A stretch of DNA of 64,000 bases from an uncultured Thermodesulfobacteriota bacterium (GTDB lineage: Bacteria > Desulfobacterota > GWC2-55-46 > JADFVP01): assembly GCA_964510775.1 (NCBI GenBank), contig CAZEBZ010000001.1, forward strand, positions 21,608 through 85,607, written 5' to 3'. This document shows, in pieces, positions 8,948 through 12,641 of this stretch. Every line of letters starts with the position of its first letter. Position 1 is the stretch's first letter. The notes beneath the pieces are model-generated. The model was given only the letters and a program-made list of their open reading frames with translations, was not told where the DNA came from and searched no databases. The translations under genes were made by a program, and so were the position numbers.

Positions 8948-10348
8948 ATGGCTGACAAAAATATAAAGAACAAGAGCAAGATTGTCGTCGTTGATGACGA
9001 GCAGGATATGAGATCCTTTCTGGAAATACTGCTGCGCCGCTGCGGGTACTCTGTTATGAGTTTCCCTACTGCGAAGATGGCCCTACTGTACTGCAGGGCA
9101 AATCCCTTTGATCTCGTAATTACAGATCTTCGCATGCCGGGAATGGATGGAGTGGAGCTGCTTCGCGAGTTGAAGGGCATTGACAAAGAGGCGCCTGTTA
9201 TTATGATAACGGCCTACGCCTCTGTTGATACGGCTATTGACGCCATGAAGGCCGGGGCCTATGATTACTTTACCAAGCCTTTTAATATTGATGAGATAAA
9301 GATTAATATTAAAAAAGCCCTTGAATACCGCTCCCTTCACATTGAGAACAGTCAGTTGAAGAGAGAGATAAGGGCTTCCTCAGGTGTTGAGAGCATCATC
9401 AGCCAGAGCGCTGTTATGTCAGATATATTCAGGATTATAAAGGGCGTAGCGGCGACAAAGGCCAGCGTTCTTATTACCGGCGAGTCCGGTACTGGTAAGG
9501 AGCTTATCGCCCGCGCCGTCCATGTAGAGGGCGACCCGGTGAATACGCGTTTTGTGGCTATAAACTGCGGAGCCATACCTGAGAATCTCATGGAGAGTGA
9601 GCTCTTCGGCCATCTTAGGGGCTCATTTACAGGTGCTGTCGCTGATAAGCCCGGGCTCATTGAGCAGGCCGACGGTGGTACGCTTTTTCTTGATGAGATT
9701 ACGGAGATGCCTCTTCGCCTCCAGGTAAAACTCCTTAGATTCTTACAGGAGCGTTCATTCAGGCGTGTAGGCGGAGATGAGGACATCACTGTAGATCTGC
9801 GTATTATAGCCGCCTCCAACAAGAATGTGACAGAGGAGGTGCGCTCAGGTAAGTTCCGTGAAGATCTCTTTTACAGGCTTAATGTAATCCATATCGAGCT
9901 GCCCTCTCTTCGTGAGAGAAGAACGGATATACCGCTCCTTGCCGAGCATTTTCTCGCAAAATATTCTTCCGCTCATAATAAGCTCGTGAAGAATATCTCA
10001 AAAGAGGCTATGGACATACTCATGGGCTTTAATTACCCCGGCAACGTTCGTGAGCTTGAGAATATCATAGAGCGTGCCGTTGCCTTTAGCTCCTCAGATA
10101 CGCTCCTTCCTGATACTCTGCCTAAATCACTCTTAAGTAACGGTCTGAGTCTCGCTTTTGGTTATGACCTCGAAGTCCCTGATAAGGGCCTTGACATTGA
10201 GAAGACAGTAGAGGATATTGAGAAGGAGATAATATCCAATGCCCTTAAGAAGGCGGGAGGCGTGAAAAAAAGAGCTGCCGAGCTTCTTGGCTTGTCTTTT
10301 CGGTCCATGAGGTATAAAATCAGCAAATATGAGATACGGGAAGACTAA
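8948..10348 (+). CDS. pilR: sigma54-dependent response regulator PilR (REC + AAA+ + Fis-type HTH)
   Basis: 466 aa; receiver D54-like VITDLRMPGMDG; Walker A GESGTGKE; GSFTGA variant of GAFTGA; C-terminal HTH; adjacent to pilS. Confidence 0.85.
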   Translation: MADKNIKNKSKIVVVDDEQDMRSFLEILLRRCGYSVMSFPTAKMALLYCRANPFDLVITDLRMPGMDGVELLRELKGIDKEAPVIMITAYASVDTAIDAMKAGAYDYFTKPFNIDEIKINIKKALEYRSLHIENSQLKREIRASSGVESIISQSAVMSDIFRIIKGVAATKASVLITGESGTGKELIARAVHVEGDPVNTRFVAINCGAIPENLMESELFGHLRGSFTGAVADKPGLIEQADGGTLFLDEITEMPLRLQVKLLRFLQERSFRRVGGDEDITVDLRIIAASNKNVTEEVRSGKFREDLFYRLNVIHIELPSLRERRTDIPLLAEHFLAKYSSAHNKLVKNISKEAMDILMGFNYPGNVRELENIIERAVAFSSSDTLLPDTLPKSLLSNGLSLAFGYDLEVPDKGLDIEKTVEDIEKEIISNALKKAGGVKKRAAELLGLSFRSMRYKISKYEIRED

Positions 10349-12641
10349 AGGCAGTGAGACTATAAGTGCCATCTTCGTTCTTTTATGGGTGGCGCTTTTT
10401 ATTGTCCTTAGCGCTACGCAGATACAGCACTGGGATTCTGATATTTTCTGGGCTCTGAGGTCAGGGCGCTGGATAGTAGAGAACTGGCAGGTTCCGCTAA
10501 CGGACCCTCTAAGCTACACCTTCTCCGGCGGCGAGTGGGTAGACTTTACCTGGGGTTTTCAGGTAATTGCCCACTTTTTTTATACAAGTCTCGGCGGCTG
10601 GACGGGCCTTTACATACTCCAACTCTTACTGACCTTTGCGGTTTTTGCTGCGCTTTTACTTAATATCAGACAACTTGTCGAGAGAAGGCTCTGGCTCTTA
10701 CCCCTTCTGCTTGTCCTTACCCTTGCCTGCAGCTACCCGCGTCTGTTCATAAGGCCCCATCTCTTTGGTTTTCTCTTTATCTCCACTTACCTCCTTATAC
10801 TTAATTCTTATGAGAGAAAAAAAACCTCTCTTCTACTCTTTCTTATCCTTCCTCTTCAGGTCTTCTGGGTAAATATTCACTCCAGCGCCATACTTGGTGT
10901 TCTTATTGTCTGGGCCTATGCCTCAGGGGAATTTATAGATGTATTCATAAGAGATGGCTTTAAGGGGTTTAGAGCCCTCTTATCGAGCAGGAAAAATCTG
11001 ATTATTCTCGCCCTTATCATACCCCTTGTCTCTCTGCTTAATCCATACGGGTTGAAACTCGCCATATTCCCTTTTATCCATCAGGGAGGAGTAAACAGCG
11101 ACGCCCTCCGGCATATAGGCGAGTGGACGCGTCTACCTTTTAAGGAACTCTTCTTTTATTTTTTTCCAGTCCCAGTAAATTACTTTGCATTCAGGCTTCT
11201 CTTCTACGGAACACTTGTCTCTCTTGTACTCAATTGGCGAAAGGTAAAGACAAGGGATATTATGCTTTTTGGCGGAGCAGCGTATATGGCAGTCAGCCAC
11301 GTCAGGTGGGTTGGCCAATTCGCCTTCTTTGGGGCGCCTATTATAGCCTTTAATATGAAGTCTTATCTCGAGGGCAGGGGTGGTGAGGCAAGGTGGCTCG
11401 CAAGAGCAGGTATTATCCTCTCTTTATTTATCGCTATCCTTATGGGACTGCTCCTAACGAAAGGTGACTTTACAGGCAAGCTCGGCATAGGGCTCCGTGT
11501 TAGCGATTACCCCGTTGGCTCGGTAAGGTTTATGAGAGAGAATGCCCTTAAGGGGAATATATATAATTACTATGATTTTGGCGGCTACCTTACCTTTAAT
11601 TATCCTGAGCTAAAGGTATTTATAGATGGAAGGACGCCTACGGTATACTCGCCGCATTTTTACTGGAAGGAGAGGCACGCAGAGAGTAAAGAGGGTTGGA
11701 AGAAGTTAAGCTCTGAGTTAGCTATTACTATGGCCCTCGTGAAGTTGGATCAGCCGCTATGTAAAGTGCTTTATAAATCAGAGCAGTGGACTCCTGTTGT
11801 CTTTGATGATGTCGCCGCCCTTTACCTTAAGAAGAAGAGCGGCTACGGGGATATTATAAAGGGCAAGGGCCTCTCCTTTACGCCATGCTCCGGTGATAAG
11901 CAATACAAGATACCAAAAGGTCAAAAAGAACGTTTAGAGATGGAAAAAGGCCTTAGGAGCGTTATGAACTCCATAGACGACGGAGGGGAGGGGATGCATT
12001 TTTACCGTCCGCACAGACTGCTTGGTCTTCTTCTTGGCGAGTTTAAAGATAAGGCGCATCAGAGAGAAGCTGTAGAAGAGCTAAAGACAGCCTCAGAGGC
12101 CCCTGGAAGCGACAGTTTTGTATACTACGACCTCGGTATTGCCCTTGGCAGGGTTGGTAGAAGAGAGGAGGCCATAGCCGCGTTCAAGACCTCAATCAAG
12201 CTGAATAAGGCCTTTAAACGCAGTTATCTCGCCCTTGGCCTTACGTACTTTGATAATAAAAATTACGAGGCCTCTGCGCGTTTGCTTGGTAAGTATGTAG
12301 TGCTTGCCGACGATAAGGCCGAGTTCCCTGGGTTAAAAGTCCTTGGCAGGAGCTGCTTTAAGCTCGGCAGGCTCACCTGCGCCGAGGACGCACTGAAGAG
12401 GGCGGCCTTTATCGCCGATAGTGACAAAAAAGAGGGTGAGGTATTTTATTATCTCGGTAATACTTTTTTTGAGGCAGGTGATTTAGATAAGGGTGTAGAG
12501 TACTACAGACGCGCTATATCAAAGGACTCGTCCTATGAAAAGGTCCTTGAGAATCTCTCAAAGATGCTGGCCTCGAAGAAGGATCTTCACAAATCCTCGG
12601 CTATAACTGACATGCTGAAAAAAGTACGCAAAAAAGACTAA
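10329..12641 (+). CDS. polytopic membrane protein (about 11-13 TM; GT-C / PMT_2 / TMTC-like fold with acidic first-loop motif WDSDIFW) with a C-terminal TPR array. Candidate polyprenyl-phosphate-sugar dependent protein glycosyltransferase
   Basis: 770 aa; N-terminal ~420 aa very hydrophobic; C-terminal ~250 aa TPR-like repeats; start overlaps pilR stop by 20 nt. Confidence 0.45.
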   Translation: MRYGKTKGSETISAIFVLLWVALFIVLSATQIQHWDSDIFWALRSGRWIVENWQVPLTDPLSYTFSGGEWVDFTWGFQVIAHFFYTSLGGWTGLYILQLLLTFAVFAALLLNIRQLVERRLWLLPLLLVLTLACSYPRLFIRPHLFGFLFISTYLLILNSYERKKTSLLLFLILPLQVFWVNIHSSAILGVLIVWAYASGEFIDVFIRDGFKGFRALLSSRKNLIILALIIPLVSLLNPYGLKLAIFPFIHQGGVNSDALRHIGEWTRLPFKELFFYFFPVPVNYFAFRLLFYGTLVSLVLNWRKVKTRDIMLFGGAAYMAVSHVRWVGQFAFFGAPIIAFNMKSYLEGRGGEARWLARAGIILSLFIAILMGLLLTKGDFTGKLGIGLRVSDYPVGSVRFMRENALKGNIYNYYDFGGYLTFNYPELKVFIDGRTPTVYSPHFYWKERHAESKEGWKKLSSELAITMALVKLDQPLCKVLYKSEQWTPVVFDDVAALYLKKKSGYGDIIKGKGLSFTPCSGDKQYKIPKGQKERLEMEKGLRSVMNSIDDGGEGMHFYRPHRLLGLLLGEFKDKAHQREAVEELKTASEAPGSDSFVYYDLGIALGRVGRREEAIAAFKTSIKLNKAFKRSYLALGLTYFDNKNYEASARLLGKYVVLADDKAEFPGLKVLGRSCFKLGRLTCAEDALKRAAFIADSDKKEGEVFYYLGNTFFEAGDLDKGVEYYRRAISKDSSYEKVLENLSKMLASKKDLHKSSAITDMLKKVRKKD

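Follow-up and report, generated by a model that had tools for sequence, protein, structure and literature searches.

What does a large membrane protein do when its gene stands between the regulator and the major pilin gene of a type IV pilus locus? The question is raised by a 64,000-nucleotide (nt) stretch of DNA from an uncultured Thermodesulfobacteriota bacterium (hereafter the window, meaning this stretch at its full length), in which an open reading frame (ORF) at 10329-12641 on the plus strand, labelled X, has an ATG start and encodes 770 amino acids (aa). Domain matches in Pfam and NCBIfam bear out the flanking genes and the order pilB-pilT-pilC-pilS-pilR-X-pilA, as read when X was singled out as a candidate pilin O-glycosyltransferase (the original prediction), and a protein identical to X is present in public data (P0001). 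The best explanation of the whole, which we hold with a little better than even confidence, is that X is a periplasm-facing glycosyltransferase of the GT-C class that glycosylates the pilin, or extends a glycan on the pilin, before assembly; it is credible that X is a pilin-glycosylating enzyme. The fold, topology, conservation pattern and gene linkage described below are in silico results, and the coordinates of the features in the window are collected in Table 1.

Predicted fold and topology

The full-length AlphaFold2 model of X, built on 33 homologues, was confident, with a predicted local distance difference test score (pLDDT) of 87.7 and a predicted template-modelling score (pTM) of 0.81. 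Searched as a whole with Foldseek, this model was swamped by matches to tetratricopeptide repeats (TPRs), and residues 1-555 were therefore re-predicted (pLDDT 86.9, pTM 0.87) and searched alone against the PDB. All 26 matches at E<0.01 were GT-C enzymes (yeast and human STT3, AglB, DPY19, PglB, AftA, ArnT, ALG9, AftD and EmbA/B), led by yeast STT3 (8age_A, E 5.9e-8, TMq 0.64). STT3, AglB, PglB and DPY19 scored highest (E 6e-8 to 1e-4 and TMq 0.50-0.64 for STT3, AglB and PglB), followed by AftA and ArnT, and Pmt1/2 and Pmt4 were marginal (E about 0.4-0.5, over partial lengths). The same search returned no O-antigen ligase or Wzy structure and gave transporters only at E>0.3 and probability <0.15, so that the ligase, Wzy or transporter fold that the original prediction had set against its own GT-C assignment did not turn up. 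An enzyme of the O-antigen-ligase/Wzy type (PilO/TfpO, PglL-like) would, as X does, be polytopic with a large periplasmic C-terminal part and stand beside pilA, as TfpO does. This alternative, or a transporter, is contradicted by the absence of either class from the significant Foldseek matches, and X has no Pfam match to Wzy_C (PF04932); we give it almost no weight.

The helices of the AlphaFold2 model, read with the positive-inside rule, give X 11 transmembrane (TM) helices, with the N-terminus in and the C-terminus out, at the lower end of the 11-13 first estimated. Lys and Arg residues number 14 in the short cytoplasmic loops and 7 in the periplasmic loops. The predicted periplasmic elements are a 55-residue first loop, an alpha/beta domain and the TPR array, which is placed in the periplasm because it is located after the last (11th) TM helix. 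The array foreseen in the original prediction is thus present, at a length of about 210 aa and not 250.

Sequence comparison gave little to set beside this model. Residues 1-548 had no Pfam match even at E<=10 and matched no NCBIfam model, and the C-terminal third, with its TPRs, was the sole part matching known families. A PDB sequence search with a profile of the full-length protein returned TPR proteins only, and one with a profile of the membrane domain returned chance matches only. Because these searches were uninformative, the GT-C assignment rests on the predicted fold and on conservation. X is very probably a sugar-transferring membrane enzyme, and its family carries no annotation.

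Invariant polar residues are predicted to face the periplasm

The two motifs quoted in the original prediction, HWDSDIFW and GEWVDFTWGF (aa 68-77), are both present in X, and the predicted topology places the invariant D38 on the periplasmic side just after TM1, in agreement with an acidic motif in the first periplasmic loop. D38 is invariant in alignments A1, A2 and A4, and D36 is at least 90% conserved in the close clade. Across A4, which holds 40 diverse and distant family members that are about 25% identical, D38, R142, W180, P239 and R326 are invariant. The invariant polar residues of the membrane domain are D38 (with D36), D59, R138/R142, W180-x-N182-x-H184, N238-P-Y, E265 and R326, and the invariant residues of the alpha/beta domain are N413, G418, G419, D433, R435, W487 and D493, with D433 and R435 in a D433-G-R435 motif. 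The predicted topology assigns all of the invariant polar residues to the periplasmic face. Placed on the model, such conservation is what a periplasm-facing GT-C active site with a catalytic Asp at the end of TM1 would be expected to show.

This pattern bears on the suggestion that X retains a GT-C-like fold without being a catalyst and serves as a pilus accessory factor, be it a membrane-anchored TPR scaffold or chaperone or a partner of PilS-PilR in pilin sensing. TPR proteins such as PilF, PilW and Tgl have non-catalytic roles in pilus biogenesis; X matches the PilW and Tgl models weakly, through generic TPR similarity, and it is translationally coupled to pilR. Conservation of D38, D59, R142, N182, H184, E265 and R326 down to about 25% identity is, however, the pattern of an active site and not of a scaffold, and sister loci carry genes for GT2, ArnE/F-like, asparagine-synthase-like and methyltransferase proteins. 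We regard a non-catalytic role as improbable.

Given that the best structural matches of X are STT3, AglB and PglB, and that its alpha/beta domain weakly matches the C-terminal globular domain of AglB (3vu0; E 0.17-0.5, probability 0.94-0.99), X might also be an oligosaccharyltransferase of this type, which would take a preassembled glycan from a polyprenyl-diphosphate carrier and pass it as one block to Asn or Ser/Thr of the pilin. Against this stand the lack of a Pfam STT3 match and of the WWDYG motif, in place of which X has the analogous stretch YNYYDFGGYL (N413-YYDFGGYL) with an Asp that is not conserved in the family. The window is also without genes for the assembly of lipid-linked oligosaccharides, such as an initiating phosphoglycosyltransferase or a Wzx flippase. 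N-glycosylation of the pilins was considered and found no support, since an N-x-S/T sequon occurs at one semi-conserved position (after GGYxxS) in only 8 of the 15 pilins compared from the clade of X. An oligosaccharyltransferase of this kind seems to us quite improbable.

The clade of X is linked to pilin genes

Gene context was inspected at 86 loci. Among loci with at least 40% identity to X, pilS-pilR lies directly upstream in 17 of 17, and a prepilin gene directly follows in all 13 that have enough downstream DNA, starting about 2.4-2.7 kb after the start of X. Because synteny among such close relatives could be inherited, more distant members were inspected as well, and these revealed two other arrangements. 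In a Candidatus Desulfofervidaceae metagenome-assembled genome (MAG; locus L020, 32% identity), the order is pilin-pilin-X homologue-548-aa membrane protein-GT2/methyltransferase fusion-129-aa protein, and the 129-aa protein has its best NCBIfam matches in ArnF and ArnE, two flippase subunits. From their sequences, the GT2, the ArnE/F-like protein and the X homologue of this locus may be the synthase, flippase and GT-C enzyme of a three-component system, and these two neighbours of the homologue are the one indirect support for a polyprenyl-phosphate-linked donor. In four further loci (L022, L090, L092 and L093, about 28-32% identity), the order is one to three pilin genes-Wzy_C (with or without TPRs)-GT2-(295-aa protein)-asparagine-synthase-like-X homologue, with the cassette at L022:1361-5912, L090:3482-7998 and L092:3400-8997; L091 holds a truncated end of it. 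The presence of Wzy_C, GT2 and asparagine-synthase-like amidotransferase genes between the pilins and the X homologue suggests a multi-step pilin glycan pathway.

All pilin-linked members fall in one clade within the wider family in a neighbour-joining tree of the membrane domain that carries no support values. One member of this clade, P0128, was picked from it before its context was known and proved to be pilin-linked too. The position of X beside a pilin gene, on which the original prediction was built, is therefore seen in strict pilR-X-pilA synteny among orthologues and in two other pilin-adjacent arrangements within the clade, and the link of this clade to pilin genes is unusually well supported by the three gene arrangements.

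Outside the clade the contexts differ. The distant homologues P0117 and P0118 are not beside pilins and occur in other glycan or surface-protein contexts. At L003:530-12034, and at L004, P0118 (about 24-28% identity) lies between a 2,486-aa fn3/Laminin_G surface protein and a Wzy_C protein with TPRs, and large surface proteins may therefore be the substrates of other clades in the family. The link to pilins belongs to a single clade and does not extend to the whole family.

These contexts also feed a rival reading in which X is an active GT-C enzyme and PilA is not its direct acceptor. X would then act on another periplasmic or outer-membrane protein, or on a pilin-borne oligosaccharide, an exopolysaccharide or lipopolysaccharide, and its position would be explained by shared regulation with the pilus genes alone. 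In favour of this reading, most of the wider family has no link to pilins, X would be transcribed together with pilSR instead of from the pilA promoter, the Wzy_C proteins beside the pilins in L022, L090 and L092 could act on the pilin, and L003 pairs an X homologue with the fn3 surface protein and a Wzy_C protein. On the other hand, three gene orders keep the subfamily within a few genes of pilins, and in the window and at most orthologous loci X is the sole transferase gene from pilR to the terminator of pilA. A membrane-anchored pilin would, moreover, be an ideal substrate for a membrane enzyme with a periplasmic TPR array, as it is for TfpW. We consider a non-PilA acceptor unlikely, if serious enough to be kept in view.

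The neighbourhood of pilA carries further candidate transferases in related genomes. In several orthologous loci pilA is followed by a polytopic protein of 568-609 aa with C-terminal TPRs and the start '...APFV[FY]DD', a TMTC-like loop-1 motif (regions L001:11029-14408, L010:9011-10717, L011:8979-10742, L014:8994-12457 and L017:7856-11433), and in L001, L014 and L017 a PMT_2-type GT-C gene comes next. The window has neither gene. The recurrence of TMTC-like and PMT_2 genes after pilA indicates that pilA is a hotspot for periplasmic glycosyltransferase genes in this lineage.

The pilin as candidate acceptor

The prepilin ORF with its N_methyl match spans 12758/12821-13240, and sequence reading makes the ATG at 12821, behind an AGGAGG site, the most likely start of pilA. 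The mature pilin has 123 aa and no Cys. The Ser/Thr-rich C-terminal half noted in the original prediction is real, with 25% Ser plus Thr in mature residues 56-123 against 11.8% in 23 large ORFs of the window (binomial P = 0.002), and it is weak evidence for glycosylation because the globular domains of pilins are generally rich in Ser and Thr. In the 15 clade pilins, the N-terminal 55 residues are near identical, Cys is absent, and the globular part has 15-31% Ser plus Thr. A Ser in the motif GG[YF]xxS is invariant in all 15 and corresponds to mature S76 in the window, and several other Ser/Thr positions are near-invariant. Judged by sequence, the composition of these pilins appears compatible with O-glycosylation and not diagnostic of it.

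Proposed mechanism and donor route

Catalysis by X, its donor, the pilin as acceptor and the type of linkage are given here as we infer them. X would be an inner-membrane GT-C enzyme whose active site faces the periplasm and is formed by the invariant polar residues of the membrane domain together with N413, GG418-419 and D433-G-R435 of the alpha/beta domain. The donor would, as for other GT-C enzymes, be a polyprenyl-phosphate-linked sugar, which a GT2 would build at the cytoplasmic face before it is flipped across the membrane, and the periplasmic TPR array would recruit or hold the acceptor. The most likely acceptor is PilA, which before assembly would share the inner membrane with X and expose its Ser/Thr-rich globular domain to the periplasm. 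The sugar would most likely be placed on Ser or Thr of the pilin, or possibly on an existing pilin glycan, before PilB and PilC polymerise the pilin.

Gene arrangement suggests how the two partners may be expressed. The 3′ end of pilR overlaps the start of X by 20 nt, and the overlap recurs in relatives (20 nt in L001, 4 nt in L006); X would be expressed with the pilSR regulators because it is translationally coupled to pilR. The end of X and the start of pilA are 179 nt apart, and in 13 of 14 loci the region between them contains TGGYWY-N5-YTGCH, which is the sigma54 -24 GG / -12 GC consensus with some degeneracy. pilA would be expressed from its own PilR/sigma54 promoter.

The pilA gene is followed by a divergent six-gene cluster (13619-19603, minus strand) that encodes a radical S-adenosylmethionine (SAM) protein of 292 aa, a GT9 heptosyltransferase-like protein, a GT2, beta and alpha subunits like those of pyruvate dehydrogenase E1 (dependent on thiamine pyrophosphate) and a radical SAM protein of 356 aa. 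The DPM1/ArnC-like GT2 of the original prediction stands as a gene and less well as a type, since its full-length matches to the AglJ, ArnC, dolichyl-P-hexose transferase and PpgS models are weak and far below their cutoffs. It has no TM helix, and its suggested part in supplying the donor is conjectural. Below cutoff, the 356-aa radical SAM protein matches NCBIfam models that include those of SPASM-type maturases and of two sugar enzymes, DesII and BlsE, and some antibiotic pathways use E1-like pairs to form two-carbon branched sugars. The product of the cluster may be an unusual sugar; any link of the cluster to X is conjectural. Genes of the cluster also follow pilA in L001, L006, L007, L010, L012-L014, L017 and L018, and the synteny of the GT2 with pilA could simply reflect the relatedness of these genomes.

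Besides the general Ser/Thr richness of pilin globular domains, several points weigh against the reading of X as a pilin-glycosylating enzyme. The Foldseek superpositions are distant, with 10-14% identity and a global root-mean-square deviation of 8-14 A. Common descent accounts for part of the synteny among the 17 orthologous loci, and the clade is drawn from a tree without support values. At 23-29% identity, 62 of 63 inspected loci have no pil or pilin gene nearby; because most of the family (32,206 representatives) is not near pilin genes, pilin specificity can hold at most for one subfamily. The Wzy_C family includes known pilin O-oligosaccharyltransferases, and the Wzy_C protein of the pilin cassettes could act on the pilin while X modifies the glycan or another substrate. 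The GT2 near pilA is generic, no small flippase-like membrane ORF was found in the window, and the source organisms of these pilins are uncultured.

A large family and its place among known enzymes

X has 521 close homologues in public data, nearly all labelled 'tetratricopeptide repeat protein' and belonging to MAGs of uncultured Thermodesulfobacteriota or 'Deltaproteobacteria'. Searched more widely, a profile of the membrane domain matched 32,206 representatives of 50%-identity clusters at E 1e-3, 22,949 at E 1e-10 and 8,768 at E 1e-30, and relatives of X occur at no fewer than 555 loci in species-representative genomes of many phyla. The 40 diverse members of A4, compared with Pfam and NCBIfam, matched TPR-type models and no membrane-domain model, with the exception of three that matched NF047440 ('LA_3751/LA_3752 family putative glycosyltransferase', Leptospira; E down to 5.7e-7), a match that may lie in either the membrane domain or the TPRs. 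Homologues from cultured organisms are annotated 'hypothetical protein'. Distant plasmid-borne homologues in Azospira and Granulicella were considered and set aside, their contexts being uninformative and their labels again 'hypothetical protein'.

The original prediction had likened X to PMT_2/TMTC enzymes; membership in the PMT_2, PMT or TMTC families was not supported. X has no Pfam match to them at E<=10, and profile-profile comparison of alignment A3 by hhalign gave a probability of 2.9% with the PMT_2 neighbours of pilA in related genomes and matched the TPR tail alone of the TMTC-like neighbours, with no homology of the membrane domain; neither neighbour is homologous to X. X is a GT-C enzyme by fold and not a PMT, PMT_2, TMTC or STT3 protein by sequence. 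The cyanobacterial pilin-modifying enzyme Ogt was also considered as a relative and rejected, as it is a cytoplasmic GT41 enzyme unrelated to X.

To our knowledge, the enzymes that glycosylate type IV pilins belong to two classes, the Wzy_C-type TfpO/PglL and the GT-C enzyme TfpW, both from a few pathogens. We tentatively suggest, as something possible rather than probable, that X provides the first clear functional context for any member of a very large unannotated GT-C family (the 22,949 representatives at E<=1e-10, with no Pfam or NCBIfam model of the membrane domain and with protein oligosaccharyltransferases as nearest structures), and that one clade of it, in its three arrangements, represents a third class of enzymes dedicated to glycosylating type IV pilins, built firmly into the pilS-pilR operon in this lineage. 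Glycosylation of type IV pilins alters pilus assembly, surface chemistry, adhesion and phage susceptibility. If a distinct pilin-linked GT-C/TPR clade does exist in environmental Thermodesulfobacteriota, the glycosylation of pilins would reach further, and involve a greater variety of enzymes, than is documented now. The clade would also open a first route to the function of a very large membrane protein family now labelled 'TPR repeat protein' or 'hypothetical protein', and would add a candidate protein-glycosylating enzyme for glycoengineering.

Features of the window

Table 1 Predicted features of the pilus locus, with positions in the 64,000-nt window
Feature	Position	Strand	Basis
X, predicted GT-C glycosyltransferase with periplasmic alpha/beta domain and C-terminal TPR array	10329..12641	+	AlphaFold2 (AF2), Foldseek
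X membrane domain, aa 1-377, 11 predicted TM helices, cytoplasmic N-terminus	10329..11459	+	AF2 helices and positive-inside rule
HWDSDIFW, aa 34-41, periplasmic end of TM1, candidate catalytic acidic motif	10428..10451	+	Alignments, topology
X predicted periplasmic alpha/beta domain, aa 378-550	11460..11978	+	AF2 secondary structure, conservation
X TPR array, aa 559-769, six helical hairpins, predicted periplasmic	12003..12635	+	Pfam TPR_1, TPR_2, TPR_16 and others; AF2 helices
Sigma54-type promoter TGGCATGGCACTTGCA, upstream of pilA	12734..12749	+	Read from sequence
pilA, 139-aa prepilin, leader MSINTMVSKFKDDRGG cleaved before FTLVELL	12821..13240	+	N_methyl, NF041775 N-terminal match, start-site reading
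Hairpin rich in G+C and flanked on either side by T-runs, likely bidirectional terminator after pilA	13270..13286	.	
GT2 glycosyltransferase of the divergent cluster, possible polyprenyl-phosphate sugar synthase	15636..16400	-	PF00535, 86 bits
pilB, type IVa pilus assembly ATPase	2985..4685	+	TIGR02538, 794 bits, above cutoff; T2SSE and MshEN domains
pilT, retraction ATPase	4842..5966	+	TIGR01420, 481 bits, above cutoff
pilC, platform protein	5969..7195	+	T2SSF twice; NF052606, 552 bits
pilS, sensor histidine kinase	7196..8923	+	PF25323 6TM_PilS, PAS, HisKA, HATPase_c
pilR, sigma54-dependent response regulator	8948..10348	+	Response_reg, Sigma54_activat, HTH_8

Two observations elsewhere in the window concern other systems. 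An ORF of the glycine/sarcosine/betaine reductase selenoprotein B family (GRDB-like; 19877-20560, plus strand) ends at a TGA that is in frame at 20387-20389, and the frame is open beyond it (...LLTPG-TGA-GICNRSVG...). This TGA is probably a selenocysteine codon and not a stop, because read-through gives a U-x-x-C motif. The plus-strand region 21578-29380 begins with an Rnf-type complex (rnfC, D, G, E, A and B-like, 21578-27105), which is followed by a small TPR protein and then a ResB-like cytochrome c biogenesis protein; these genes are ordinary and unrelated to X.

Comparison with known systems

In the three-component scheme, a polyprenyl-phosphate-sugar synthase, a flippase and a GT-C enzyme work together (PMC11127046). 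The systems of this kind considered here (Gtr, ArnC/ArnEF/ArnT and GT136) resemble the L020 locus with its X homologue, GT2 and ArnE/F-like small transporter. They differ from the window, which has a generic GT2 nearby and no flippase found, and the known ones modify glycans or lipid A and not proteins.

The oligosaccharyltransferase subunits STT3/AglB/PglB (GT66) and the C-mannosyltransferase DPY19 (GT98) are the best structural matches of X over its membrane and periplasmic domains, and they share with it a protein acceptor, presumed for X, and a soluble domain after the last TM helix, which binds the acceptor or, in X, would bind it. X differs from them in having no detectable sequence similarity, neither the WWDYG nor the DK/MI motif, and a TPR array that those enzymes do not have. 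TMTC1-4 (GT105) are like X in joining a GT-C membrane domain to extracytoplasmic TPRs, and for both TMTC and PMT/PMT_2 (GT39, GT83) the likeness extends to the Ser/Thr protein acceptor presumed for X. The difference from these families lies in the lack of a Pfam match and of hhalign homology in the membrane domain, and in the marginal place of PMT structures in the Foldseek search.

TfpW of Pseudomonas aeruginosa group IV is encoded beside pilA and is required for arabinosylation of the pilin; it has 646 aa, 11 TM helices with the N-terminus in, an essential acidic motif in loop 1 and a periplasmic C-terminal TPR, and it uses a polyprenyl-phosphate-linked sugar made by separate genes (bioRxiv 10.1101/2020.04.19.049825). 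The two proteins differ in several respects. The gene for X precedes pilA and is joined to the pilSR operon; tfpW comes after pilA. In loop 1 the motif of X is D36-S-D38 where TfpW has DDx, both acidic and at an equivalent position with other spacing. The Yx6PFx7P motif of TfpW and Emb proteins (periplasmic loop 4) is absent from X, which has Y240-x7-P248-F249 and a Ser 8 positions after F249. X is also 124 aa longer and has an extra periplasmic alpha/beta domain of about 170 aa. In common with TfpW, X adjoins a major pilin gene (as in the 13 of 13 orthologous loci with downstream DNA), and has 11 predicted TM helices, an inward N-terminus and a periplasmic C-terminal TPR array, and at L020 a member of its clade has the gene order of TfpW, with the GT-C gene after the pilin. 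Because TfpW exists, a pilin-glycosylating GT-C enzyme is not surprising in principle, and TfpW, compared here by its published description, would be the closest functional analogue of X.

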